DNA from: Patescibacteria group bacterium
GTDB taxonomy: Bacteria > Patescibacteriota > Minisyncoccia > UBA6257 > HR35
Direction of reading: 5' to 3'
Length of the DNA stretch: 64,000 nucleotides
Assembly: GCA_030549845.1 (NCBI GenBank)
Contig: JAUQQN010000001.1
Location: 6,879-70,878, forward strand
Below, piece after piece: positions 9,827-46,244 of this stretch. Each line of letters opens with the position of its first letter. Position 1 is the stretch's first letter. The position numbers and the translations under genes are program-made. Under the pieces are notes generated by a model, which ran no database searches, had not been told where the DNA came from, and worked only from the letters and a program-made list of their open reading frames with translations.

Positions 9827-10120
9827 ATGCTAACAAAAGAAGAATTAGAACATTTAGCAAAATTAGCAAAGATTGAATTTAAAGAAAAAGAGTTAGAAAA
9901 AATTTTGGAAGATATTGAAAAAATTTTTGGCTATGTAAATGAAATCCACAAATTAGATTTAGAAAATTATGAACCAATGATAGGAGGACCTATTCAAACA
10001 TTAGGATTAAGAGAAGATATTAAAGAGGTGTGCGATTTAGAAATTAAAGAACTGATCATCAATCAATTTCCAGAAAAAGAGAAAAATTTCTTAAAAGTTC
10101 CTAAAATAATTGAAAAATAA
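9827..10120 (+). CDS. gatC: Asp-tRNA(Asn)/Glu-tRNA(Gln) amidotransferase subunit C
   Basis: 97 aa, LTKEELEHLAKLAKIEF...E.E...DL pattern typical of GatC. Confidence 0.7.
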   Translation: MLTKEELEHLAKLAKIEFKEKELEKILEDIEKIFGYVNEIHKLDLENYEPMIGGPIQTLGLREDIKEVCDLEIKELIINQFPEKEKNFLKVPKIIEK

Positions 10121-10122
10121 AT

Positions 10123-11025
10123 TTATATTTTTAGATATTTTTGAATAGCAATACTACTAGAAATTATTGTAATCAAAAATAAAAAGAAAAACAAAAGAAG
10201 ATTTATTTGCCAAAAGTTTATAAAATAAAATAGCTCTGGGTTTAATGTAACTAAAATGTTTCTCCAAAAACCCCTTGTTTTTATTAATATTAAAATAAAA
10301 ACTCCTTGAGCTAATAAAAATCCTATTATTAACGAAATTAACTGTGAAATAAGGAATGGTAATCTAATAAAATAATTGGGAGCCCCTATTAATCTGAAAA
10401 TTTCTATTTCTTCTTTTTGTGAATAAATAGAAAGCAAAGTAGAATTAAAAATTATTAAAGCATTAAATCCTACTATTAATATTAAAAATATTGCTAAAGA
10501 GTATTTTAATTGAGTAGAAATTTTTATAAATCTGTTTATAACTTCTCTATTTTCTGAATAAGTAAGAAAATCTATAATTGCCCTATAAGGTGAATGCTCC
10601 AAATAACTTGCTACTTCTTCGTATACCTCTGGTTTATCTGCTTTAATAACTAAATAATCAACAAAAGGATTAATTTTTAATTCATTCAAGGCTTTTAAAA
10701 TGGTTGGGTTTGCTAAAAATTTTGTTTGAAATTCTTGCCATGCTGTTTCTTTAGTTATAAAATTTACCCTTCTTACTCCTTGAAAATTTTCTAAAATATT
10801 TTTGAGTTTATTAATATCTTCTCTACTTGTATTTTCTTTAAAATAGACAGTAAAATCTAATTTAGTTTTTACATATTCTATACCTTCATTCATTACATAA
10901 TATGAAATTACAACAATAAAAATAAACAAAGTTGTAAGAAAAGTTATAAAAATATTAACTAAGCTTATTAAGGTTTTATTTCGAAATAAACCAAAGCCTT
11001 CTCGAAGGATTCTTATTATAAGCAT
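10123..11025 (-). CDS. ftsX: Cell division permease FtsX
   Basis: FtsX-like 4-TM topology with periplasmic loop; immediately downstream of ftsE. Confidence 0.8.
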   Translation of the reverse strand: MLIIRILREGFGLFRNKTLISLVNIFITFLTTLFIFIVVISYYVMNEGIEYVKTKLDFTVYFKENTSREDINKLKNILENFQGVRRVNFITKETAWQEFQTKFLANPTILKALNELKINPFVDYLVIKADKPEVYEEVASYLEHSPYRAIIDFLTYSENREVINRFIKISTQLKYSLAIFLILIVGFNALIIFNSTLLSIYSQKEEIEIFRLIGAPNYFIRLPFLISQLISLIIGFLLAQGVFILILIKTRGFWRNILVTLNPELFYFINFWQINLLLFFFLFLITIISSSIAIQKYLKI

Positions 11026-11040
11026 CTTTAAATTTTAACA

Positions 11041-11724
11041 TCAAACTAAAGTATACTTCCCAGGATTTTCATCTCTTACTATTCGACCTTGATGTAAGGT
11101 AATAACCCTTTTATTTAGATAATTCACTATATCCTTATGATGGGTAGCTAATATAACTGTAATTCCTTGTTGATTAATGTTCTTCAAAAGTTCTACAATT
11201 TCCATCGCAGAGATAGGATCCAAATTACCTGTTGGTTCATCTGCTAATAAAACTTCTGGGTTTGTAGATAATGCTCTTGCTATAGCTAATTTTTGTTTTT
11301 CACCACCAGATAAAAATTTTGCTAATATTTTTCTATGACTCCAAAGATCAATCATTCTTAAAAGTTCTTCTGTCTTTTTCATTATTTCTTTATTTGAAGC
11401 TCCAATAATTTCTAATGGCAATCGTAAATTGTCATATACAGTTCTATCTAGCAATAATTTAAACTCTTGAAATACAATTCCTATTTTTCTTCTAAGCTCA
11501 GAAAGGGTTTTACCTTTTATTTTTTTATATTCTAAATTTTTATAATAAATAGTTCCTTCGGTGGGAGTTTCTTCTTTTCTTATTAATTTTAAAATTGTCG
11601 TCTTACCTGCGCCGGATCTACCTACAAATATCACAAATTCACCACTTTTGATTTCAAAAGATGCTTTTTCTACAGCTACTATGTTAGGATAATAAATTTT
11701 AGTTACATTTCTGAAAATTATCAT
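11041..11724 (-). CDS. ftsE: Cell division ATP-binding protein FtsE
   Basis: Walker A GRSGAGKTT, ABC signature LSGGEKQKLAIARAL, Walker B LLADEPTGNLD. Confidence 0.85.
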   Translation of the reverse strand: MIIFRNVTKIYYPNIVAVEKASFEIKSGEFVIFVGRSGAGKTTILKLIRKEETPTEGTIYYKNLEYKKIKGKTLSELRRKIGIVFQEFKLLLDRTVYDNLRLPLEIIGASNKEIMKKTEELLRMIDLWSHRKILAKFLSGGEKQKLAIARALSTNPEVLLADEPTGNLDPISAMEIVELLKNINQQGITVILATHHKDIVNYLNKRVITLHQGRIVRDENPGKYTLV

Positions 11725-20597: not shown

Positions 20598-20624
20598 AAT
20601 TTTGGTAATCAGATTACGAAAATT
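20598..20624. repeat. P1 palindrome copy A (TTTTGGTAATCAGATTACGAAAA)
   Basis: Perfect inverted repeat 11+1+11; ~80 bp upstream of the efflux operon start and downstream of the GxxExxY gene. Confidence 0.9.
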
Positions 20625-21154: not shown

Positions 21155-21294
21155 TTTTTTATTTTTTAAATTAATCCTTCAATCTTTCTACTTTGCTTTT
21201 TTTAATAATCTTTTAATAATTTATACTTTTTCTTATTTTCGTATGATTTTTAAACCAAATCAGTAATTTTTATTGGATGAATTTTTGAAACAAT

Positions 21295-21317
21295 TTTGGT
21301 AATCAGATTACGAAAAT
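21295..21317. repeat. P1 palindrome copy B
   Basis: CAATTTTGGTAATCAGATTACGAAAAT; promoter-proximal to the GxxExxY gene. Confidence 0.9.
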
Positions 21318-21409: not shown

Positions 21410-21436
21410 TTTTAGGTTGGCAGATAGAAAAACAAT

Positions 21437-21459
21437 TTTGGTAATCAGATTACGAAAAT
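21437..21459. repeat. P1 palindrome copy C
   Basis: TTTTGGTAATCAGATTACGAAAATACGTAAATAAT, same extended flank as copy A. Confidence 0.9.
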
Positions 21460-22968: not shown

Positions 22969-22992
22969 TTTTTCGTAATCAGATTACAAAAC
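22969..22992. repeat. P1 palindrome copy D (degenerate)
   Basis: TTTTTCGTAATCAGATTACAAAAC. Confidence 0.8.
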
Positions 22993-24958: not shown

Positions 24959-24981
24959 GTTTCGTAATCAGATTACGGAAG
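24959..24981. repeat. P1 palindrome copy E
   Basis: GTTTCGTAATCAGATTACGGAAG, ~45 bp upstream of the 23883..24914 gene start. Confidence 0.85.
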
Positions 24982-25066
24982 ACATGTTATTTTTAGAAGA
25001 AAAATTACAAAAAAAATTTTATTTATTTAAGGGCACCTCTAGAATTTTTAAGTTCTTTTAATCACT

Positions 25067-25089
25067 TTTCGCAATCAGATTACGGAAGA
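25067..25089. repeat. P1 palindrome copy F
   Basis: TTTTCGCAATCAGATTACGGAAG, ~58 bp upstream of the 25147 (+) gene. Confidence 0.85.
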
Positions 25090-25146: not shown

Positions 25147-26166
25147 ATGGGAAATTTTGAAAGACAATTTATTTCAGGACAAAAAAGACAGGAACGAAAA
25201 AAATCAGAAATAAAAATTACACCAGAACAAAAAGAAATTTTAGAATCTGCAGTAAAATTTGCTGAATATATAGTATCTCGTTTCCCTCAGATTGATGAAA
25301 ATCGTAGGATAATAATTGAAGTCAGTGAAGAAGGGCCTACTGTCGAACTTCCCGAGATGCCGGAATTCATAGAAACAGTATTGATGATGTTGAATTACTA
25401 TTTTTCCGGTTCTTTAGCTACAATGCTTTTATCGATGGCTGAGCAATTTACTGAAATAGATGAAAGCGAACTGCCTGGCATAAAAGAAGGTCAAACCCGT
25501 ACTATTCCAGAAAGTGCGCGAGAAATCTTAGCAACTTTTGCACGCCCTATAGGAGATTTAGATTATGTTCCTACAGATTTCTATGAAGGGAAAAGAGCAC
25601 ATGTTAGAAGTCTTTATGGAAAAGTAAGTAGTGAAGAATATCAAAAATTGTGCGCTAAGTTTTTGTGGAAAGGTGGTAGTATAGGGTTTGATGAAATTCC
25701 GGAGGAAGCATCTAAATGTCTTAAACGAGAAGCAACACAATTGAGAATATTCGTTGATCCTCTTGAATGTTATGGCGTGAAACGAGTTGCAAAAATTGTG
25801 GTTGCTGGAAAAGAATATTTCATAGCGAGACCGGATGCTATGTTTGCTTATAAAGTTTTACATTTGTTGCAAGCGTATGAACAAAAGCCGGAAAAATTTA
25901 ACGCTGATTTTAGTAAATTGTTTTCAGCTATGAAGGAAATTTACAGTGAAGACGAATTACTACAAACAGTTTTTCAAGTTCTTAAGGATTATGAAAATGC
26001 TATGGAAGCTTCTCATCGCAGATGGCATGAAGCCCTAGGTTATGAAAAGCCATACAAATCCGAAATCCCGGCTTTTTGTAAAAAAATTTTAGGCAATCCA
26101 AGCATTACACCCGAGATTAGATATGTTATTGAAGAAATTCAAAAAAAATTTACCGTCAAAGAATAA
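25147..26166 (+). CDS. Hypothetical protein with locally elevated GC content (cassette-like, flanked by P1 copies F and G)
   Basis: 339 aa, no recognisable motif; visibly more G/C-containing codons than neighbours (e.g. GAAGGGCCTACTGTCGAACTTCCCGAGATGCCGGAATTC). Confidence 0.5.
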   Translation: MGNFERQFISGQKRQERKKSEIKITPEQKEILESAVKFAEYIVSRFPQIDENRRIIIEVSEEGPTVELPEMPEFIETVLMMLNYYFSGSLATMLLSMAEQFTEIDESELPGIKEGQTRTIPESAREILATFARPIGDLDYVPTDFYEGKRAHVRSLYGKVSSEEYQKLCAKFLWKGGSIGFDEIPEEASKCLKREATQLRIFVDPLECYGVKRVAKIVVAGKEYFIARPDAMFAYKVLHLLQAYEQKPEKFNADFSKLFSAMKEIYSEDELLQTVFQVLKDYENAMEASHRRWHEALGYEKPYKSEIPAFCKKILGNPSITPEIRYVIEEIQKKFTVKE

Positions 26167-26202: not shown

Positions 26203-26225
26203 TTTTCGTAATCAGATTACGAAAA
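26203..26225. repeat. P1 palindrome copy G
   Basis: TTTTCGTAATCAGATTACGAAAA, perfect; sits between convergent gene ends. Confidence 0.9.
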
Positions 26226-26273: not shown

Positions 26274-27539
26274 CTATAGACCAAATTCTGCTGGAAGGTT
26301 GTTTAAGATGAATTCTTGTGGTTTTTCTGTAAAAATAATTCTTTTTCCTAAAGATTGTGCAAAACCAATTTCTAAAAGAGCTGAAGCTTCAACATATCCA
26401 TCTGGATCGCAAACTATTAAAGCATCAGAGTTAATAATTGAGTTTAAATGGTAACGTTCTAATTCTAATGGAGATAAACCTTCCTTGCCGCTAAAAATTA
26501 CGAATTCTTCTCCAGGATTTTTAGGTTCAATAAACCTTGGACTAAGAACTTTAACTCCAGAAGCTTCTAATTCTTTCTTTATTTTCAAAATGTAATCTAG
26601 ATGTTTTCTAAAACTCCCACTTAAAGTTACATACCTAAACTCTTGTCTAATAACACCATTTATCAAATTAGAATCTGATGGAATAATTTTTAAAATCCCA
26701 TACTTTTCGCATATAGCTTGCGAAATAGCCGAAAAAGCTCTTGCCCCATGCATCCATTTTGGATTATCTGGCATTAAATCTTCAAGTTCTTTTAAGGTTA
26801 TCTTTTCAAAAATTTCCTTATTTTTAATTTTGTAATCATCAATTGTAATCAAAAAAGGATGATCTTCATCTTCAAATAAATTATTTTTTTGAAGTGGATA
26901 ATCGGCTAACTTCATATATGTTAATTCTCCTCCTGTTAAGAAGGCAATTTCAGATTTATTATCTAATACCGGAAGTTTTGACTCCACAAAATTTACAATT
27001 TCATCTAACTTTGTCCTAGATATATTTTCATTAATCTCAGGAAATTTAGTTAAAATTGTACCAACTCCTATGTCTAGATTCTTTCTTTCAATAGCTTCGT
27101 CGCCATACATTACTACTAATTCAGTCGTTCCTCCGCCAATGTTAATAAGCAAAATAGGTTCTTTTAAACTACATTTTCTTATTAGCGCCTTTTCAAGATA
27201 AAAATTTTCTAACTCCTGACTTATGATATTAAAATACAACCCCGTTCTTAAAAAAACTTCATCAATAAAATCTGTTTTAGTCGCTGGAGCTAATTTTCTA
27301 AAAATTCCTGTAGCATAAATTTTTATCTGGGCATTTCTATTTTGTGCTTTTATTGCATCCAAAAGTTCGAAAAGTTCTTTTTTAGATTCTGGCGAAATTC
27401 CACCTTCAGGGTCAAAATTTTCTTTAAAAAAGATGGAACGTTTTAATAATAAACTTAATTTTTGACCAGAATATTTATAAACCTTAATAGTTGGAGAACC
27501 AATATCCAAAAGAATTTTTTCCATATTTATAAAAAACAA
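26274..27539 (-). CDS. Fusion protein: Ppx/GppA-like (ASKHA) N-terminal domain plus nucleoside 2-deoxyribosyltransferase-like C-terminal domain
   Basis: N-terminus LLDIGSPTIKVYKY...ATGIFRKL resembles the Ppx/GppA phosphatase fold. C-terminus DALIVCDPDGYVEASALLEIGFAQSLGKRIIF resembles the NDT/LOG-like motif (Y.G.S...E.G.A.A.GKPI). Confidence 0.5.
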   Translation of the reverse strand: MFFINMEKILLDIGSPTIKVYKYSGQKLSLLLKRSIFFKENFDPEGGISPESKKELFELLDAIKAQNRNAQIKIYATGIFRKLAPATKTDFIDEVFLRTGLYFNIISQELENFYLEKALIRKCSLKEPILLINIGGGTTELVVMYGDEAIERKNLDIGVGTILTKFPEINENISRTKLDEIVNFVESKLPVLDNKSEIAFLTGGELTYMKLADYPLQKNNLFEDEDHPFLITIDDYKIKNKEIFEKITLKELEDLMPDNPKWMHGARAFSAISQAICEKYGILKIIPSDSNLINGVIRQEFRYVTLSGSFRKHLDYILKIKKELEASGVKVLSPRFIEPKNPGEEFVIFSGKEGLSPLELERYHLNSIINSDALIVCDPDGYVEASALLEIGFAQSLGKRIIFTEKPQEFILNNLPAEFGL

Positions 27540-27654: not shown

Positions 27655-27677
27655 TTTTCGTAATCAGATTACGAAAA
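27655..27677. repeat. P1 palindrome copy H
   Basis: ACAGTTTTCGTAATCAGATTACGAAAATTTATT; flank identical to copy G over ~35 nt. Confidence 0.9.
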
Positions 27678-27954: not shown

Positions 27955-30243
27955 TTATTTTAATCTCAAAGCATTTAAAGCAACGATTATTGTGGATAAA
28001 CTCATAAAAATTGCACCTAAAGCTGGAGAGAGTAAAATTCCTTTAAAAGCTAAAATTCCAGCAGCAAGAGGAAGAGCAATAATGTTATAACCAGTTGCCC
28101 AAAATAAATTTTCTATCATTTTTTGATAAGTTTTTCTTGAAAGTTCAATTATTTTGACAATGTCTCTTGGATCATTCTTTACTAAAATTATTCCTGCAGA
28201 TTCAATGGCAACATTTGTTCCGGCGCCAATAGCAACTCCAACATCAGCTTGCATAAGTGCTGGCGTATCATTAATTCCATCACCAACCATCATTACTTTA
28301 AAGCCACGCTTTTGTAATTCTTTAACTTTATTTACTTTCTCTTCTGGTAAAACTTCAGCAAAATATTCATCAATGCCAAGCTCTTTTGAAACTTTCTCAG
28401 CAACTTCTTTTTTATCACCAGTTATCATTGAAACTTTAATGCCTAATTTATGAAGTCCCTTAACTGCTTCAAAAGATTCTTTTCTTATTTCATCTTCCAA
28501 AATAATTGCTCCTAAAATATTTTTCTCTTCAATTAAATAAACTATTGTTCCGATTTCAGATAAAAGTGGTTTTTCAATACCTAATTCTTTTAATAAATTA
28601 TCACCACCCAAATAATAAAGTTTACCACCAATTTTTCCCTTAACCCCTCTTCCAGGTAAATTTTCAAAATCTTCAACTTTTAAAAACTCTAATCCATCTT
28701 CTTTTGCCTTTTCCAAAATTCCTTGAGAGATAAAATGAGAAGAATATTGACTTAAAGAAGCTGCAAGTTGAAGGATTGTTAATTCTTGTGAACCTTCTCG
28801 CGAACTATTATGTGAATTTTCTCGAATATTAAATTGTCTTCCGAGGTTCGTTCCGGCGGAGGTATTTAATATCTTTTTCACTTTAAATTTTCCTGAAGTT
28901 AAGGTTCCAGTTTTATCAAATAAAACAATATCTATTTTTCTTGCAAATTCAAGCTGGAGTCTATTTCTAATTAAAAATCCATTATGAACTGCTAAAGATG
29001 TTGAAATAGCAGCAACAAGAGGAACAGCTAAACCTAAAGCATGAGGACAAGCAATAATCAAAATAGTAACTAATCTTTCTAAAGCAAAATCAAAATCTTT
29101 TTTAACTAAAAGCCAAAGAGTAAAACTTAAAAGACCAATAAAAATAGCGATAAATGTTAAATATTTTGCAAAAACATCAGCTAAAACCTGAAGTTTTGAT
29201 TTTGAAGCTTGGGCTTCTTTAATTAGTCTTTTGATACCTGCTAAAAATGTCTCTTCACCAATTTTTGTTACTTTAATTTTCAGCATTCCATCACCATTAA
29301 TTGTTCCAGCAATAACTTCTGAACCAACTTCTTTCAAAACTGGCTTACTTTCACCAGTAATCATACTTTCATTAACTTCTGATTTCCCTTCAATAACAAT
29401 TCCATCAGCGGGAATTTTTCCTCCTGGTCTTACTAAAACTATATCGCCTACTTTAATTTCTTCGAGTTTTATTATTTTTATTTCTTCTTTTTTATTAACA
29501 GAATCTTCTGCATTATCAAAGTCATCCTGCGAGCGAGAATCGGGTAGGCCGTGGGTAAATGTTTGATTTAATATTATTACTTCTGCTGTATCTGGTAATA
29601 ATTTCTCAATTTCTTGTAAAGCTCTCTGGGCTGAAGAAACTGATTTCATTTCAAAATAATGTCCTAAAAGCATAATCGTAATTAAACTTGTCAGTTCCCA
29701 GAAAAATTCATGTCCAATTTTAAATAAAACAGGAAAAACACTATAAACATATGCAGAAGATATGGCTAAACCAATTAAAGTCATCATCCCGGGATTTTTA
29801 GCCTTAAGTTCGCGATATGCACCAACAAGAAAAACAAAGCCACCATAGAAAAAAATAATTGAGCCAAGAATTAAAATCAAATATTGAATTCCCTCGAAAG
29901 ATGGCAATTTTATCCCAATAAATTTTTGAAAGACATCAGAATAAAGAATGATAGGAATAGTCAAAATTAAAGAAAGCCAAAATTTATTTAAAAAATCTTC
30001 AGCACGGTGGCCATGATGTTTATTTTGGGTCGCGAACTTCTGCGAACTTTCTCGCGAACTGATGTGAATACTACTTTCGCTAGAAACATCTTCAACTTCA
30101 ATGAGTTTCATTCCACAGACATGACAATTACCAGGCTTTTCCTGTGGTTCAATACACTGCATTGGGCAAATATATTTCTTCATTCTCAAAAATATTATAT
30201 CATAAAAATACCCCCAGGTGGTATATAGAGTTTTTAAAAACAC
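27955..30243 (-). CDS. copA: Copper-translocating P1B-type ATPase (CopA/CopB-like)
   Basis: N-terminal CPMQC...CHVCGMKL metal-binding motif, His-rich stretch HHGHRAED, TGES, CPH transmembrane metal site, DKTGTLT, GDGINDTPAL. The true start is probably the internal MKKYICPMQC. Confidence 0.85.
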   Translation of the reverse strand: MFLKTLYTTWGYFYDIIFLRMKKYICPMQCIEPQEKPGNCHVCGMKLIEVEDVSSESSIHISSRESSQKFATQNKHHGHRAEDFLNKFWLSLILTIPIILYSDVFQKFIGIKLPSFEGIQYLILILGSIIFFYGGFVFLVGAYRELKAKNPGMMTLIGLAISSAYVYSVFPVLFKIGHEFFWELTSLITIMLLGHYFEMKSVSSAQRALQEIEKLLPDTAEVIILNQTFTHGLPDSRSQDDFDNAEDSVNKKEEIKIIKLEEIKVGDIVLVRPGGKIPADGIVIEGKSEVNESMITGESKPVLKEVGSEVIAGTINGDGMLKIKVTKIGEETFLAGIKRLIKEAQASKSKLQVLADVFAKYLTFIAIFIGLLSFTLWLLVKKDFDFALERLVTILIIACPHALGLAVPLVAAISTSLAVHNGFLIRNRLQLEFARKIDIVLFDKTGTLTSGKFKVKKILNTSAGTNLGRQFNIRENSHNSSREGSQELTILQLAASLSQYSSHFISQGILEKAKEDGLEFLKVEDFENLPGRGVKGKIGGKLYYLGGDNLLKELGIEKPLLSEIGTIVYLIEEKNILGAIILEDEIRKESFEAVKGLHKLGIKVSMITGDKKEVAEKVSKELGIDEYFAEVLPEEKVNKVKELQKRGFKVMMVGDGINDTPALMQADVGVAIGAGTNVAIESAGIILVKNDPRDIVKIIELSRKTYQKMIENLFWATGYNIIALPLAAGILAFKGILLSPALGAIFMSLSTIIVALNALRLK

Positions 30244-30340
30244 TAAACTAAAATTTGAAAAAGAATGCTAAGTAAAATTAATAATAAAAAGGTTATTACT
30301 AGTCTTTGATAAGGAAAAGCCCTTCCCTGACGAAGTTGAC

Positions 30341-30796
30341 TTAATTTTTATTTAGCAAAGGTGAAATTAAAATAACCAAACCACCCAAAATTGAATCCAA
30401 CAAAAATTTATCATAAACATATGTTCGATTAAACAAACTTCCATAATCCCCAAATAAATATAAATAAAAAGAACCGATTTCATAGAAATAGAGCTTTAAA
30501 GGAAGAACAACGGAGAGAAAAGAAATTAAAATTAGTAGAAATTTTGCAAGGTTGGCGAGCGAGATTCGGGTAGGCCGTGGGCGAATGTTTGAGCCGAAGC
30601 GGAGCGGAGGCCAAACTGGCGCATCGAGTGAGCCAACTTGCAAAATATTAGAAAGCCACCATCCTAAAGCAACACTAAAAGCTCCTATCCAAACGCCAAT
30701 CGCTGATGATTTCATTCCTAATTCTCGTGCCAATAAAGCACCTATTTCAACTCCAATAGTACATAAAGGACAATGAGCAAAAGCAAAGATTGGCAA
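30341..30796 (-). CDS. Small membrane protein with N-terminal CxxC (HCPLC) motif, carrying a GC-rich in-frame insertion
   Basis: 151 aa, 3-4 TM; internal segment ...RFGSNIRPRPTRISLANLAKF is encoded by the GC-rich block at 30553-30640. Confidence 0.45.
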   Translation of the reverse strand: MPIFAFAHCPLCTIGVEIGALLARELGMKSSAIGVWIGAFSVALGWWLSNILQVGSLDAPVWPPLRFGSNIRPRPTRISLANLAKFLLILISFLSVVLPLKLYFYEIGSFYLYLFGDYGSLFNRTYVYDKFLLDSILGGLVILISPLLNKN

Positions 30797-30822
30797 AAAA
30801 AATTAAAACTATGATTATTATT

Positions 30823-31317
30823 TTATATTTCCATAAATAATCCTTGATCTTTACCATCTTTGACTGAATGAATTCTGAATGGATAAAATTTAATTCCTGG
30901 CATTCCCGGTGAACCAGAAGGCATTTCTGGAAGAGCAATGCCATTAATTTTTGGCTTTTCAGTTAAAAGTTTTTCAATTGCTTCAACTGGAATATGGCCT
31001 TCAACAAAATAATTGTTCAAAAAAACTGTATGACAAGACCATAAATTATAAGGAATATTATTTTGCCTCTTAATATTTTCAAGTTCTTCATCAGAAACTT
31101 CTCTAACTTCAACTTTAAAGCCATTTGCTTTTAAATAATTTGCGTATTGGGCACAACAATTGCAGTTAGGGGATTTATAAATAACTGCTGACATACCAGA
31201 AAATTTAGTTCGTTTTGAAGATTGATTTTTTATTAAAACCATAATTGACCCAACTAAAAGAAAACCTATTATTAACCCTAAAATTATACTTTTGTTTTTC
31301 ATTTTTATAATCCACAA
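30823..31317 (-). CDS. DUF411 / CopG-like periplasmic copper-resistance protein
   Basis: N-terminal TM anchor, CNCC motif, conserved His and Met-rich MPSGSPGMPG segment, typical of the DUF411 family found in cop loci. Confidence 0.65.
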   Translation of the reverse strand: MWIIKMKNKSIILGLIIGFLLVGSIMVLIKNQSSKRTKFSGMSAVIYKSPNCNCCAQYANYLKANGFKVEVREVSDEELENIKRQNNIPYNLWSCHTVFLNNYFVEGHIPVEAIEKLLTEKPKINGIALPEMPSGSPGMPGIKFYPFRIHSVKDGKDQGLFMEI

Positions 31318-32393
31318 CCTCCGCCAGATGATTGAAGTTCTGGCAAATTTAATTTTGCTAATTTTTGTTCGACGTTTTGAAGATAACCCGAAATTGAAGA
31401 ATATTTAGCTGACATAATTTCTTTGGGGTCAACATTTTGCCAGTCGATATTTTCAACTAATTTTAAATACATAGCAATCTTAACATAATTTTGAGGAAAC
31501 CAAAAAGAATTTAACTGAAGAGCCAATTTATAAAGTTCATCCTTTGTATATCCTTGACTAGCTGCAAGTTCTAAAGCTCCAAGTAAAGCTGAACCGTGAT
31601 TACAATCTTGAGCAAAAGTTGAATTATCACAACAAGGCCTAAAAGTATTTTGAGCAACCTCATAAACAATTTCCTCTTGCTTAGGAGTTAATTTTATAAT
31701 TTCACATTTATTAAAATATCCAGCTCCATTATCTTTCTTACCTAACCACCAACCACCAGTTGAAGCTAAATAAGGTAAATCTTTCTCACTAAAAGGAATA
31801 TTCTTATTAAATTCAGTTTTATTTGAAAGTCCCAAGGGCCAGAAAATATTTAACAAGTAATTAGCTGTTTCTTGATCAATAACTAAAGGTTCGTAATAAC
31901 CATTAATTAACTTTTGAAGATATTCAGGAATTTGCCCATTATAAAGTTTCTTCATTTTTTCTAAATCAATTACCCCACAATCAACCATTTTTTTAACAGC
32001 ATCACCCAAAACTAATCTAGTTTTAAATCCTTCAAGCGGAAGAACTTGGTTAATTATTTGCTGATATAATTCTTGATTAAAATTTGTTTGTTGGTTTGAA
32101 GATTGAGATAAATTTGAAGTAGTAGGTGAATTACTTAATTTAAAATTAAAAAACAGAAAAACCAAAACACCTCCCAACAAAACACCTATAAGAAGTTGTT
32201 GAATGTTGTAAGAGAAAATTTGGTGATTTATTTCTTCTTTGCCTATACTTTGTTTTATTATTTCTGAATTACAGCTTTTGTGTTCTCTACACCAATTTTC
32301 ACACTGTTTTGCTAATCCTTCGGTATCATAATAATAGCCACAAATTTCACACTGATAATAAACTTTGTTCTCCTTTTTAATTTCTTTTACCAT
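31305..32393 (-). CDS. Hypothetical protein with N-terminal zinc-ribbon (CEICGYYYDTEGLAKQCENWC), one TM and Cys-containing C-terminal domain
   Basis: Motif inspection only. Confidence 0.4.
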   Translation of the reverse strand: MVKEIKKENKVYYQCEICGYYYDTEGLAKQCENWCREHKSCNSEIIKQSIGKEEINHQIFSYNIQQLLIGVLLGGVLVFLFFNFKLSNSPTTSNLSQSSNQQTNFNQELYQQIINQVLPLEGFKTRLVLGDAVKKMVDCGVIDLEKMKKLYNGQIPEYLQKLINGYYEPLVIDQETANYLLNIFWPLGLSNKTEFNKNIPFSEKDLPYLASTGGWWLGKKDNGAGYFNKCEIIKLTPKQEEIVYEVAQNTFRPCCDNSTFAQDCNHGSALLGALELAASQGYTKDELYKLALQLNSFWFPQNYVKIAMYLKLVENIDWQNVDPKEIMSAKYSSISGYLQNVEQKLAKLNLPELQSSGGGCGL

Positions 32394-32406
32394 CTTTATA
32401 TATTAT

Positions 32407-32943
32407 TTATTTATTAATTCCTTCTTTTAATCTTTTGATTAAATAAATTATTCCCAAAATTAATAAGATTAAAACAAGTATTGGAACAACTAAAATAATT
32501 AACATCCAAAAAACACCGACAATCGCAAAAATAGGTGCAAAAATACTCCAACCTTTCCAATTAGAAAAATTCCACCATTCCCAATACCCCATCATTGGAC
32601 CCATCATCCAATTTGACCTACTATAACTAACTTCACAACCACTAAATCTTTTACCCATATTTATATGCATTTGTTCTTCAGCTTCTTTGCCATGCATTCT
32701 TTCCATCATTTGATTCATTAAAAGATGATCGCTTCCACCAACCATAAGTTCCATAGCATATTCACCAATTGCATGAAAATCTTCATTGGTTAAATCTTGA
32801 CAAGTAATTTTTCCTTGTTGCAATTTCTCAAAAAGTTCCTTTCCTTTTTGAATTTCAGCATTCAACTCAGCATCTTCACTGTGAGCAAAAGCAAAAGAAA
32901 TAACGACGAAAAATAATAAAATAATAATTAAAAGCTTTTTCAT
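32407..32943 (-). CDS. Met/His-rich putative periplasmic metal-binding protein with C-terminal membrane anchor
   Basis: Signal peptide; MNQMMERMHGKEAEEQMHINMG and MMGPMMGYWEWW segments; C-terminal TM helix. Confidence 0.4.
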   Translation of the reverse strand: MKKLLIIILLFFVVISFAFAHSEDAELNAEIQKGKELFEKLQQGKITCQDLTNEDFHAIGEYAMELMVGGSDHLLMNQMMERMHGKEAEEQMHINMGKRFSGCEVSYSRSNWMMGPMMGYWEWWNFSNWKGWSIFAPIFAIVGVFWMLIILVVPILVLILLILGIIYLIKRLKEGINK

Positions 32944-33287: not shown

Positions 33288-33641
33288 ATGAAAATAATTT
33301 ATACTATTGGGCATTCAACAAGAAAATTAGAAGAATTTATTGAGCTTTTAAAGAATTTTAAAATTGAAGTTTTAATAGACATTCGTCATTTTCCCCATTC
33401 AAAACATAATCCTCAATTTAACAAAGAAATTTTAGAAAAAGAATCACCGAAAGAAGGAATAGATTATCTTTGGCTTGAAGAACTTGGCGGATTTAGAAAG
33501 GGAGGTTACTTAGCTTACACTGAAACACAAGATTTTAAAGAAGGATTAAGAAAACTTACAAAAATTACTGAAGAAAAAGTAACCAATTTTCGTAATCAGA
33601 TTACGAAAATTTTAGGAATTCATTGCAATTTTAGGTTTTAA
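33288..33641 (+). CDS. DUF488-family protein, C-terminally truncated/replaced by a P1 palindrome copy
   Basis: N-terminus MKIIYTIGHSTRKLEEFIELLKNFKIEVLIDIRHFPHSKHNPQFNKE is canonical DUF488. The usual C-terminal ...CAE...CHR segment is absent; the last 17 codons are encoded by the P1 repeat (33587-33609) and its flank. Confidence 0.6.
   Translation: MKIIYTIGHSTRKLEEFIELLKNFKIEVLIDIRHFPHSKHNPQFNKEILEKESPKEGIDYLWLEELGGFRKGGYLAYTETQDFKEGLRKLTKITEEKVTNFRNQITKILGIHCNFRF
33587..33609. repeat. P1 palindrome copy I (inside the DUF488 3' end)
   Basis: CCAATTTTCGTAATCAGATTACGAAAATTTTAGG. Confidence 0.9.
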
Positions 33642-34719: not shown

Positions 34720-34755
34720 CTTAATAAAAAATAATTTTATAAAGATTTCTCAATT

Positions 34756-34777
34756 TTTGTAACCTGATTACGAAAAT
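34756..34777. repeat. P1 palindrome copy J (degenerate, ~40 bp upstream of gene start 34719)
   Basis: TTTTTGTAACCTGATTACGAAAA. Confidence 0.8.
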
Positions 34778-46220: not shown

Positions 46221-46244
46221 TTTTTCGTAATCTGATTACGAAAA
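46221..46244. repeat. P1 palindrome copy K (42 bp upstream of the mod start)
   Basis: TTTTTCGTAATCTGATTACGAAAA. Confidence 0.85.

Follow-up and report, generated by a model that had tools for sequence, protein, structure and literature searches.

In the Ppx/GppA family of phosphatases, the PPX/GPPA protein of Aquifex aeolicus (1T6C, 1T6D, 2J4R) consists of a two-subdomain ASKHA fold of ~300 amino acids (aa) without HD-like C-terminal domains. The E. coli protein PpnN (YgdH) is a LOG-family nucleotide 5'-monophosphate nucleosidase that is activated by (p)ppGpp. DNPH1 (Rcl) is a nucleotide-pool sanitiser that acts on deoxynucleoside monophosphates (dNMPs) via a Glu nucleophile; its general acid is Asp D80, and the Arg of its GS-x-R loop (R30) corresponds to the phosphate-binding Arg23 of MilB; a Ser ahead of the nucleophile is also part of the phosphate pocket in this branch (PMC10603095). 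Nucleoside 2-deoxyribosyltransferases (NDTs) use an active-site set of Tyr, Asp, Asp and Glu, plus the Asn and Met of an NLM motif, and their C-terminal NLM tail completes the active site of the neighbouring subunit (PMC12372993). In Borrelia burgdorferi, a parasite with a reduced genome, salvage centres on enzymes of the NDT type (PMC2764106). Here we describe a gene from an ultra-small Patescibacteria group bacterium in which a Ppx/GppA-like fold is joined to an NDT-like one. It lies on the minus strand of a stretch of 64,000 nucleotides (nt; contig JAUQQN010000001.1, positions 6,879 to 70,878), hereafter called the window.

The analysis confirmed that the gene truly encodes a Ppx/GppA-type phosphatase fold joined to a fold of the NDT/DNPH1/MilB kind. 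The protein is a new architectural and catalytic variant built from the Ppx/GppA and NDT/DNPH1 kinds, and owing to its deviations at Asn128 and His359 it should not be filed as Ppx, GppA, NDT or DNPH1. A full-text literature search found no paper on a fusion of Ppx/GppA-like and NDT-like domains. Most likely, the protein serves nucleotide breakdown or clean-up rather than phage defence. In the most economical model, to which we assign a probability of roughly 45%, it would be a bifunctional nucleotide-degrading enzyme for salvage or for cleaning of the nucleotide pool in Patescibacteria.

Architecture and active-site residues of the fusion protein

Residues are numbered along the 416-aa protein; the query used for the alignments was one residue shorter (from 27521), so its positions equal the real ones minus 1. 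A mechanical list of open reading frames (ORFs) gives an intact frame at 26274..27539 on the minus strand, with a TTG at 27539 as its upstream limit. Since homologues have 416 aa and the N-terminus MxKILxDIGS (alignment of close homologues), both of which fit a start at the ATG of 27524-27522, we take this codon as the true start and the TTG as probably a wrong call. With homologues in 1,127 clusters at 90% identity, a chance origin of the ORF is far exceeded.

The earlier note on this DNA, made from the letters and their translation, had likened the N-terminal ~300 aa to the Ppx/GppA-like ASKHA fold, and profile and structure searches bear this out. Pfam Ppx-GppA (PF02541) matches residues 38-212 with an E-value of 9.5e-14 (51.9 bits against a cut-off of 27), and a family-profile search of the PDB places Aquifex PPX/GPPA (1T6D) first, with an E-value of 8e-7. 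The AlphaFold2 model has a pLDDT (predicted local distance difference test) of 82, and Foldseek aligns it to 1T6D with an E-value of 2e-19 and a TM (template modelling) score of 0.74, normalized to the target. All of the top 38 Foldseek matches are Ppx/GppA structures, complexes with ppGpp among them, and NTPDases come next. Aquifex PPX/GPPA is thus the best match by both sequence profile and structure. The domain has the two subdomains of the short Aquifex type and no HD-like C-terminal part, and stand-alone homologues of 295-302 aa stop at the domain boundary, residue 296.

The DIGS loop, the ATxxxR motif, the catalytic Glu and the GGGS/TTE loop of Ppx/GppA enzymes are all aligned and conserved, at an overall identity of ~20%. 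In the phosphate-1 loop, G9 and S10 are nearly invariant; the acidic residue is D, with E seen in distant members. Glu106 fills the position of the catalytic Glu, which is E119 in Aquifex and E121 in E. coli PPX. Across 50 diverse relatives, reaching down to 22% identity, G9, S10, K14, R76, E106, G130 and G198 are each at least 90% conserved, and further conserved motifs are ATGIFR76, the GGG(S/T)TE loop and TGGE198. Unlike the Ppx/GppA enzymes, the fusion family lacks the Asp of the DxGGGS loop, and the window protein misses the NCBIfam enzyme models and adds a C-terminal glycosidase-type domain. The replacement of this Asp, Asn128, is invariant in an alignment of 20 close homologues.

For the C-terminal ~120 aa, the earlier note had proposed an NDT/LOG-like domain, and only the first half of this label stands. 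The single sequence matches Pfam Nuc_deoxyrib_tr (PF05014) weakly, with an E-value of 0.24 over the full length and 0.018 for the domain alone, and its 12-15.6 bits miss the gathering threshold of 28.8 bits. Some relatives pass this threshold (e.g. P0232 with 35.5 bits and P0150 with 32.5 bits). Furthermore, all 16 members of the C-domain alignment match PF05014 at E<=1 (best E 1.7e-6), which makes it the sole family matched by all relatives. The family profile matches the CMP N-glycosidase BcmB (4JEN) with an E-value of 0.003, with the EIG motif and the catalytic region aligned, and a BFVD search with the C-domain returned viral NDT-like proteins on top. The domain shows an NDT-type Rossmann-like fold; the PGGxGTxxE motif and the fold of LOG/SLOG proteins were looked for in it and not found. 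Structure prediction, a check that the earlier note had itself proposed, indicates an independent NDT-like fold and not a mere extension of the Ppx/GppA part, which rules out a plain Ppx with a C-terminal extension. The GxxxxEIGxAxxLGKxI motif named in the note was recovered as EIGFAQSLGKRI at residues 385-396, except for its leading Gxxxx: residue 379 is Glu, where most homologues have Gly.

Glu385 is aligned to the catalytic Glu of BcmB (4JEN), of the T. brucei NDT (2A0K) and of human DNPH1 (E104; Glu98/100 in NDTs). Together with the GS loop it is invariant in the close C-domain alignment, and one distant member has Asp in its place. In the SGSFRK loop, G, S, R and K are invariant in the same alignment. 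Judged by motif, R306 in this loop may correspond to DNPH1 R30 and MilB R23, and the positive charge of the loop suggests that the substrate is phosphorylated. The C-terminal tail EFxLNxLPxExGL hardly varies (in close homologues, F, L, N, P, E, G and L never change), recalls the tail of the NDTs and may, by analogy with their NLM tail, act in the active site of a neighbouring subunit. Across loci, the C-domain is better conserved than the N-domain, with 64-91% against 43-82% identity.

The protein shares with DNPH1/Rcl and MilB/BcmB the Glu nucleophile position in the same xE(I/L)G motif and the GS-x-R loop, and a sanitising or catabolic role on monophosphates is plausible for it as well. It differs from them in a longer loop before the Glu and in its fusion to an ASKHA domain, and the sequence relation is marginal: hhalign of the C-domain profile against human DNPH1, whose sequence was checked against the PDB, gave only a local match with an E-value of 0.015. 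With the NDTs (B. psychrosaccharolyticus 6EVS, Lactobacillus 1F8X, Borrelia BB0426), which have a salvage role in reduced genomes, it shares only the Glu of the active-site set; it stays below the Pfam cut-off and carries the positively charged GSFRK loop, which sets it apart from them.

Distribution, domain pairing and operon partners

A search for the same fusion in other genomes, as the earlier note had suggested, was rewarded with 1,127 clusters at 90% identity. Among the best 120 of these 1,127 clusters, nearly all members have 415-432 aa (one has 396 aa), identities range from 67 to 99%, and the sources are metagenome bins of the Minisyncoccia/Parcubacteria type. Members are annotated as 'hypothetical protein' or 'exopolyphosphatase/pppGpp-phosphohydrolase', the Joint Genome Institute (JGI) using exopolyphosphatase. 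When one genome per GTDB species was scanned, in a pattern-limited way, 53 loci emerged, mostly from metagenome-assembled genomes of Patescibacteria. A few loci bear doubtful archaeal or proteobacterial labels: a Mur ligase gene on one 'Pacearchaeota' contig points to a bacterial source. The fusion family is thus conserved, uncharacterised and essentially confined to Patescibacteria-type genomes. A phage origin was rejected after tblastn against 50,697 phage records gave no match.

The two domain families are paired in several ways. The ASKHA subfamily precedes the NDT-like domain in more than 1,100 clusters, and the reverse order occurs in P0254 and ~20 clusters, with the same NxGGG motif. 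In a split version (L058:3-1684), the ASKHA gene (INVGGGSTE) overlaps a stand-alone C-domain gene (P0303, 139 aa) by 4 nt, and a gene for a HAD-family phosphatase follows 3 nt after the latter; this was the sole true split operon found. MazG, an NTP pyrophosphohydrolase, also occurs as a fusion partner of the C-domain subfamily that bears the SGSFRKH motif (P0241, P0268), and NUDIX (P0127) and DUF218 (P0174) as partners of the N-domain subfamily. From the fusions in both orders, the split operon, MazG and NUDIX, it follows that a module of the glycosidase type has repeatedly been combined with nucleotide phosphohydrolases that can replace one another, and the two halves of the window protein are functionally coupled. 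The ASKHA domain can also work alone, since 9 loci of N-domain-only relatives lacked a C-domain gene within 10 kb. A stand-alone C-domain homologue (P0309, on a 2.1-Mb contig) lies between a methyltransferase and MFS transporters, an uninformative context.

Neighbouring genes were counted over 56 non-redundant loci, and nucleotide enzymes recur among them. In 7/56 loci, labelled Saccharibacteria, a T4-gp1-like dNMP kinase overlaps the stop codon of the fusion gene, and in 5/56 a methylpurine-DNA glycosylase (MPG) follows 0-6 nt downstream. Ham1 is close by in 5/56 loci and guanylate kinase in 3/56; NUDIX, HIT and OGG/HhH-GPD proteins are further recurrent neighbours. The wider 6-kb surroundings consist of ordinary chromosomal genes (tRNA synthetases, SMC, methyltransferases).

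Candidate nucleotide-degrading activity and competing explanations

In the proposed model, the enzyme would act in the cytoplasm. In a first step, the ASKHA domain would strip the terminal phosphates off a (d)NTP, a (d)NDP or a related 5'-polyphosphorylated ribose compound, with Glu106 as the catalytic base and the two glycine-rich loops holding the phosphates. In a second step, Glu385 of the C-domain would attack C1' of the resulting (deoxy)nucleoside 5'-monophosphate to form a covalent intermediate, with His359 as the acid or as a helper of the leaving group. The predicted products are a free base and (deoxy)ribose 5-phosphate, which would serve the salvage of bases and pentose phosphate, or else the removal of damaged nucleotides. 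The latter role fits the Ham1, NUDIX, MPG and OGG neighbours. As both active sites deviate from their models (Asn128 and His359), this chemistry is put forward as a proposal. The two folds, the key residues, the recurrent domain pairings and the gene contexts are observed; the substrates, the sequence of the two reactions and the physiological role are inferred.

To our knowledge, Patescibacteria are unable to make nucleotides and depend on host-derived ones, and nucleotide processing in these bacteria has so far mostly been deduced from genome gaps. The family provides a conserved enzyme candidate that would link the removal of a phosphate chain directly to the cleavage of a glycosidic bond. 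If the model holds, it would add a route of nucleotide catabolism or pool sanitation to metabolic models of the candidate phyla radiation (CPR). Furthermore, it would define an ASKHA phosphohydrolase subfamily that is active without the canonical Asp and an NDT-superfamily branch with His for Asp, and it would correct misleading "exopolyphosphatase" annotations.

Several observations weigh against this model. In 50 diverse relatives, the position of the DxGGGS Asp is occupied by N, T, V, S, I, G or C, never by Asp, and the protein misses the NCBIfam cut-offs for exopolyphosphatase (TIGR03706, 47.8 bits against 307) and GppA (NF008260, 24 bits against 624) by a wide margin. Only 1,010 of 1.8 billion representative proteins are related at E<=0.001. 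On account of the lost Asp, the missed cut-offs and the few relatives, the N-domain forms a distinct small ASKHA subfamily of the Ppx/GppA family rather than an ordinary Ppx; the first two of these points also mean that its function could lie in binding or regulation, or in some other activity. Ligand sensing is suggested for one N-domain relative, which is fused to an AraC helix-turn-helix (HTH) DNA-binding domain (P0180). In the C-domain, a His359 conserved among the fused relatives takes the place of the catalytic Asp (DNPH1 D80; Asp72/74 in NDTs), and Thr300 apparently stands where NDTs and DNPH1 have Tyr and MilB has Phe, judged by motif only (VTLSGSFR against LYFCGSIR). Divergent fused members have N or S in place of R306, the Arg of the putative phosphate loop.

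Context and distribution provide further points on the same side. Translational coupling of a phosphatase to a dNMP kinase would seem futile if both acted on the same substrates. P-type ATPases lie within 3 kb of the gene in 9/56 loci and within 10 kb in 13/56, which the model leaves unexplained. The family is patchy, with 76 clusters at E<=1e-30 among 1.8 billion representatives, and identities of 54-84% are found between contigs labelled, as deposited, Saccharibacteria, Blackburnbacteria and WWE3. In five loci (L015, L029, L042, L045, L054), the fusion gene is truncated or split into two ORFs (match regions ~10001-11245, or 1366-2624 in L045). These broken copies look like pseudogenes or frameshifts of the assembly, as would fit an accessory gene. 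The cross-lineage identities, the variable context and the fragmented copies together suggest an accessory, horizontally spread gene rather than part of a core pathway.

The loss of the metal-binding Asp throughout the family, with the phosphate loops kept, is typical of binding rather than turnover, and it speaks for a signal-controlled nucleosidase, in which the ASKHA domain, instead of supplying substrate, would bind, and perhaps slowly hydrolyse, an alarmone or a phosphate polymer, e.g. (p)ppGpp or polyphosphate, and thereby switch the C-terminal N-glycosidase allosterically. The closest solved structures being Ppx/GppA enzymes, some with ppGpp bound, the sensor-like use of an N-domain in P0180, and the better conservation of the C-domain all agree with such a scheme. 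PpnN, which pairs an NMP N-glycosidase with alarmone/phosphate chemistry, is conceptually the same, but it is regulated at an allosteric site and has no fused Ppx/GppA domain. The near-invariant Glu106, however, argues for catalysis, and the partners that replace the ASKHA domain elsewhere (MazG, NUDIX, HAD) are enzymes and not sensors, and we regard this scheme as unlikely.

A second possibility, which we likewise consider unlikely, is deoxynucleoside salvage. Here, the C-domain would be a true NDT that swaps bases, the N-domain would ready scavenged nucleotides or phosphorylate the product, and dNMP and guanylate kinases would complete the route to dNTPs. Both kinases share operons with the fusion gene, and NDT-based salvage is documented in Borrelia burgdorferi (PMC2764106), but the active-site Asp of the NDTs is not kept, nor, by motif, is the Tyr, and the GSFRK loop resembles the nucleotide-binding DNPH1/MilB branch. 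MazG and NUDIX partners, moreover, yield monophosphates and not nucleosides. The proteins of the Ppx/GppA family are, furthermore, phosphohydrolases, and no kinase is known among them.

The earlier note had further placed the protein near nucleotide-signalling defence systems, a link that found no support for this family. As a conflict or defence protein, it would act by itself in immunity, as an effector or a sensor: under phage attack it would deplete nucleotides, or else produce or remove a nucleotide signal. In favour of this, the NDT fold lies near that of TIR, and the family is patchy, probably horizontally spread and at times fragmented. Reversed-order relatives come with swappable AAA, CHAT or HD-like partners amid integrases, resolvases, transposases and toxin-antitoxin genes; these relatives, and not the window gene, are the sole support for the idea. 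In PADLOC-DB 2.0, the window protein had no match, and among the 94 nearest neighbours no defence family recurred and no model was matched by more than one protein. Likewise, the 50,697 phage records yielded no homologue, and there is no conserved partner gene. The surrounding genes encode tRNA synthetases, enzymes of repair and enzymes acting on nucleotides, the fusion gene is coupled in operons to dNMP kinase or MPG, and the very high sequence conservation among the best 120 of 1,127 clusters is unlike that of fast-evolving immune genes. We regard a defence role as improbable.

An exopolyphosphatase of cation or metal homeostasis, in which polyphosphate hydrolysis would free phosphate and cations for export by P-type ATPases with the C-domain as an accessory, is very improbable: the JGI label, the P-type ATPases of several subtypes near 9/56 (3 kb) and 13/56 (10 kb) loci, and the CPx copper ATPase, CsoR-type repressor (Pfam-confirmed only in L001 and L003) and DUF411 protein beside the gene in the window and its closest relatives speak for it, but the close ATPase associations come down to 3 lineages at 70% identity dereplication, the protein scores 47.8 bits with the exopolyphosphatase model, whose cut-off is 307, and the better-conserved C-domain and the MazG, NUDIX and HAD pairings are left unexplained.

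Genomic surroundings, repeats and reversed-order relatives

In the window, the fusion gene is monocistronic. A convergent gene on the plus strand (25147-26166, 339 aa, no Pfam match) ends 107 nt downstream of it, and a gene for a copper-type P-type ATPase lies ~430 nt upstream on the same strand. Features of the gene and its surroundings are collected in the table. A compositional island was excluded, as the G+C content is ~27% all through the window and the sole tRNA gene is far off.

Table. Coordinates of the fusion gene, its active-site motifs and associated features (window positions unless a locus is named).
Feature	Coordinates	Strand	Basis or remark
Coding sequence of the fusion protein	26274..27524	minus	416 aa + stop; start moved to ATG 27524-27522
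N-terminal domain, residues 1-296, Ppx/GppA-like ASKHA	26637..27524	minus	Pfam, PDB profile, Foldseek, stand-alone homologues
C-terminal domain, residues 297-416, NDT/DNPH1/MilB-like Rossmann-type N-glycosidase fold	26277..26636	minus	
Phosphate-1 loop D7-I-G-S10	27495..27506	minus	Aligned to DIGS of Aquifex PPX/GPPA
Glu106, counterpart of Ppx/GppA catalytic Glu	27207..27209	minus	HMMER alignment to 1T6D; second Glu of PEQEG
Phosphate-2 loop N128-IGGGTTE135	27120..27143	minus	Canonical DxGGGS Asp is Asn here
S302-G-S-F-R-K307 loop after strand 1	26604..26621	minus	Likeness to DNPH1 GS(I)R loop
His359	26448..26450	minus	Opposite general-acid Asp in hhalign to DNPH1 and HMMER alignment to 4JEN
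E385-IGFAQSLGKRI396	26337..26372	minus	Glu385 predicted nucleophile for glycosyl-enzyme intermediate
C-terminal tail E404-FILNNLPAEFGL416	26277..26315	minus	Nearly all fused homologues end ...GL
CPx P-type ATPase with N-terminal heavy-metal-binding domain	27955-30243	minus	
Perfect 23-nt palindrome TTTTCGTAATCAGATTACGAAAA	26203..26225	none	48 nt after stop codon, between convergent genes
Second copy of the palindrome	27655..27677	none	~130 nt upstream of start codon
All palindrome copies	20600-20622, 21294-21316, 21436-21458, 22970-22992, 24959-24981, 25066-25088, 26203-26225, 27655-27677, 33587-33609, 34754-34776, 46222-46244		
Divergent NDT-like + ribbon-helix-helix genes	L018:9288-9890, L026:9362-9901, L031:5632-6219, L032:9293-9904, L036:2955-3548, L044:9326-9910		
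Reversed-order modules	L059:6001-8925, L060:2702-5815, L061:6001-8859, L062:4615-7877, L063:6001-9459		

A copper-resistance cluster (27955-32943) adjoins the fusion gene and comprises the CPx P-type ATPase, a DUF411/glutaredoxin-like protein and conserved unknowns of 362 and 178 aa. It is common only to the closest relatives, the syntenic loci L001, L003 and L010 (those of P0026, P0024 and bacterium HR35). The CsoR-type repressor is confirmed by Pfam in L001 and L003, and the window and L010 have only an unannotated homologue of ~88-89 aa. P-type ATPases within 3 kb occur in the window, L001, L003, L009, L010, L013, L017, L038 and L053, and within 10 kb also in L025, L037, L043 and L049. Six of these are of the CPx heavy-metal type and the rest of other subtypes.

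The gene had also been described in the earlier note as an isolated cassette flanked by palindromes. A palindrome does lie on each side, and the two copies have 35 identical nt in common, but they do not mark the boundaries of a cassette. The window holds 11 intergenic copies of TTTTCGTAATCAGATTACGAAAA against 0 expected from shuffling, perfect in four cases and with up to 3 mismatches in the others, and they are concentrated between 20.6 and 34.8 kb. The palindrome is missing from all 58 related loci. A cassette bounded by gene-specific palindromes is ruled out by this dispersed occurrence in the window and by the absence from the related loci. A scan for consensus terminators found nothing at the palindromes. 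The element is a dispersed, genome-specific repeat unrelated to the gene family, and may be a repeated operator or a REP-like (repetitive extragenic palindromic) element.

In all reversed-order relatives, of 470-540 aa with the NDT-like domain first and the Asp-less Ppx/GppA-like domain second, a gene for a large, variable partner comes next on the same strand. This partner is an HD-like protein of ~460 aa (L059, L061), an AAA ATPase (L062, L063) or a CHAT protease (L060), and the AAA and CHAT partners have an N-terminal domain of ~165 aa in common. The loci carry genes for integrase, resolvase, DDE transposase, TrwB and toxin-antitoxin systems. Together, the fusion and its partner resemble a so far undescribed module of two genes for conflict or defence, and these relatives may represent a new module of the defence type.

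A broader reading, which we hold to be unlikely, would cover both gene orders. The Asp-less ASKHA domain and the NDT-like N-glycosidase would then form a recurrent nucleotide-processing unit, which in the reversed order would be the sensing or signal core of undescribed conflict systems and in the order of the window would be a stand-alone, ligand-gated nucleotide destroyer, either a nucleosidase under the control of an alarmone or polyphosphate, or an immunity protein that depletes nucleotides. With either of these, episymbiotic Patescibacteria could alternate between storing up the nucleotides they scavenge and burning them.

In 6 independent lineages, a divergently oriented gene for a protein of ~195 aa lies 31-122 nt upstream of the fusion gene. 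This protein has an NDT-like N-terminal domain, in which GHQ, GYQ or GYD replaces the catalytic Glu, and its C-terminus (RFNLxI...GKTKAEI) is ribbon-helix-helix-like. Probably, it regulates the fusion gene by sensing a nucleoside or nucleotide.

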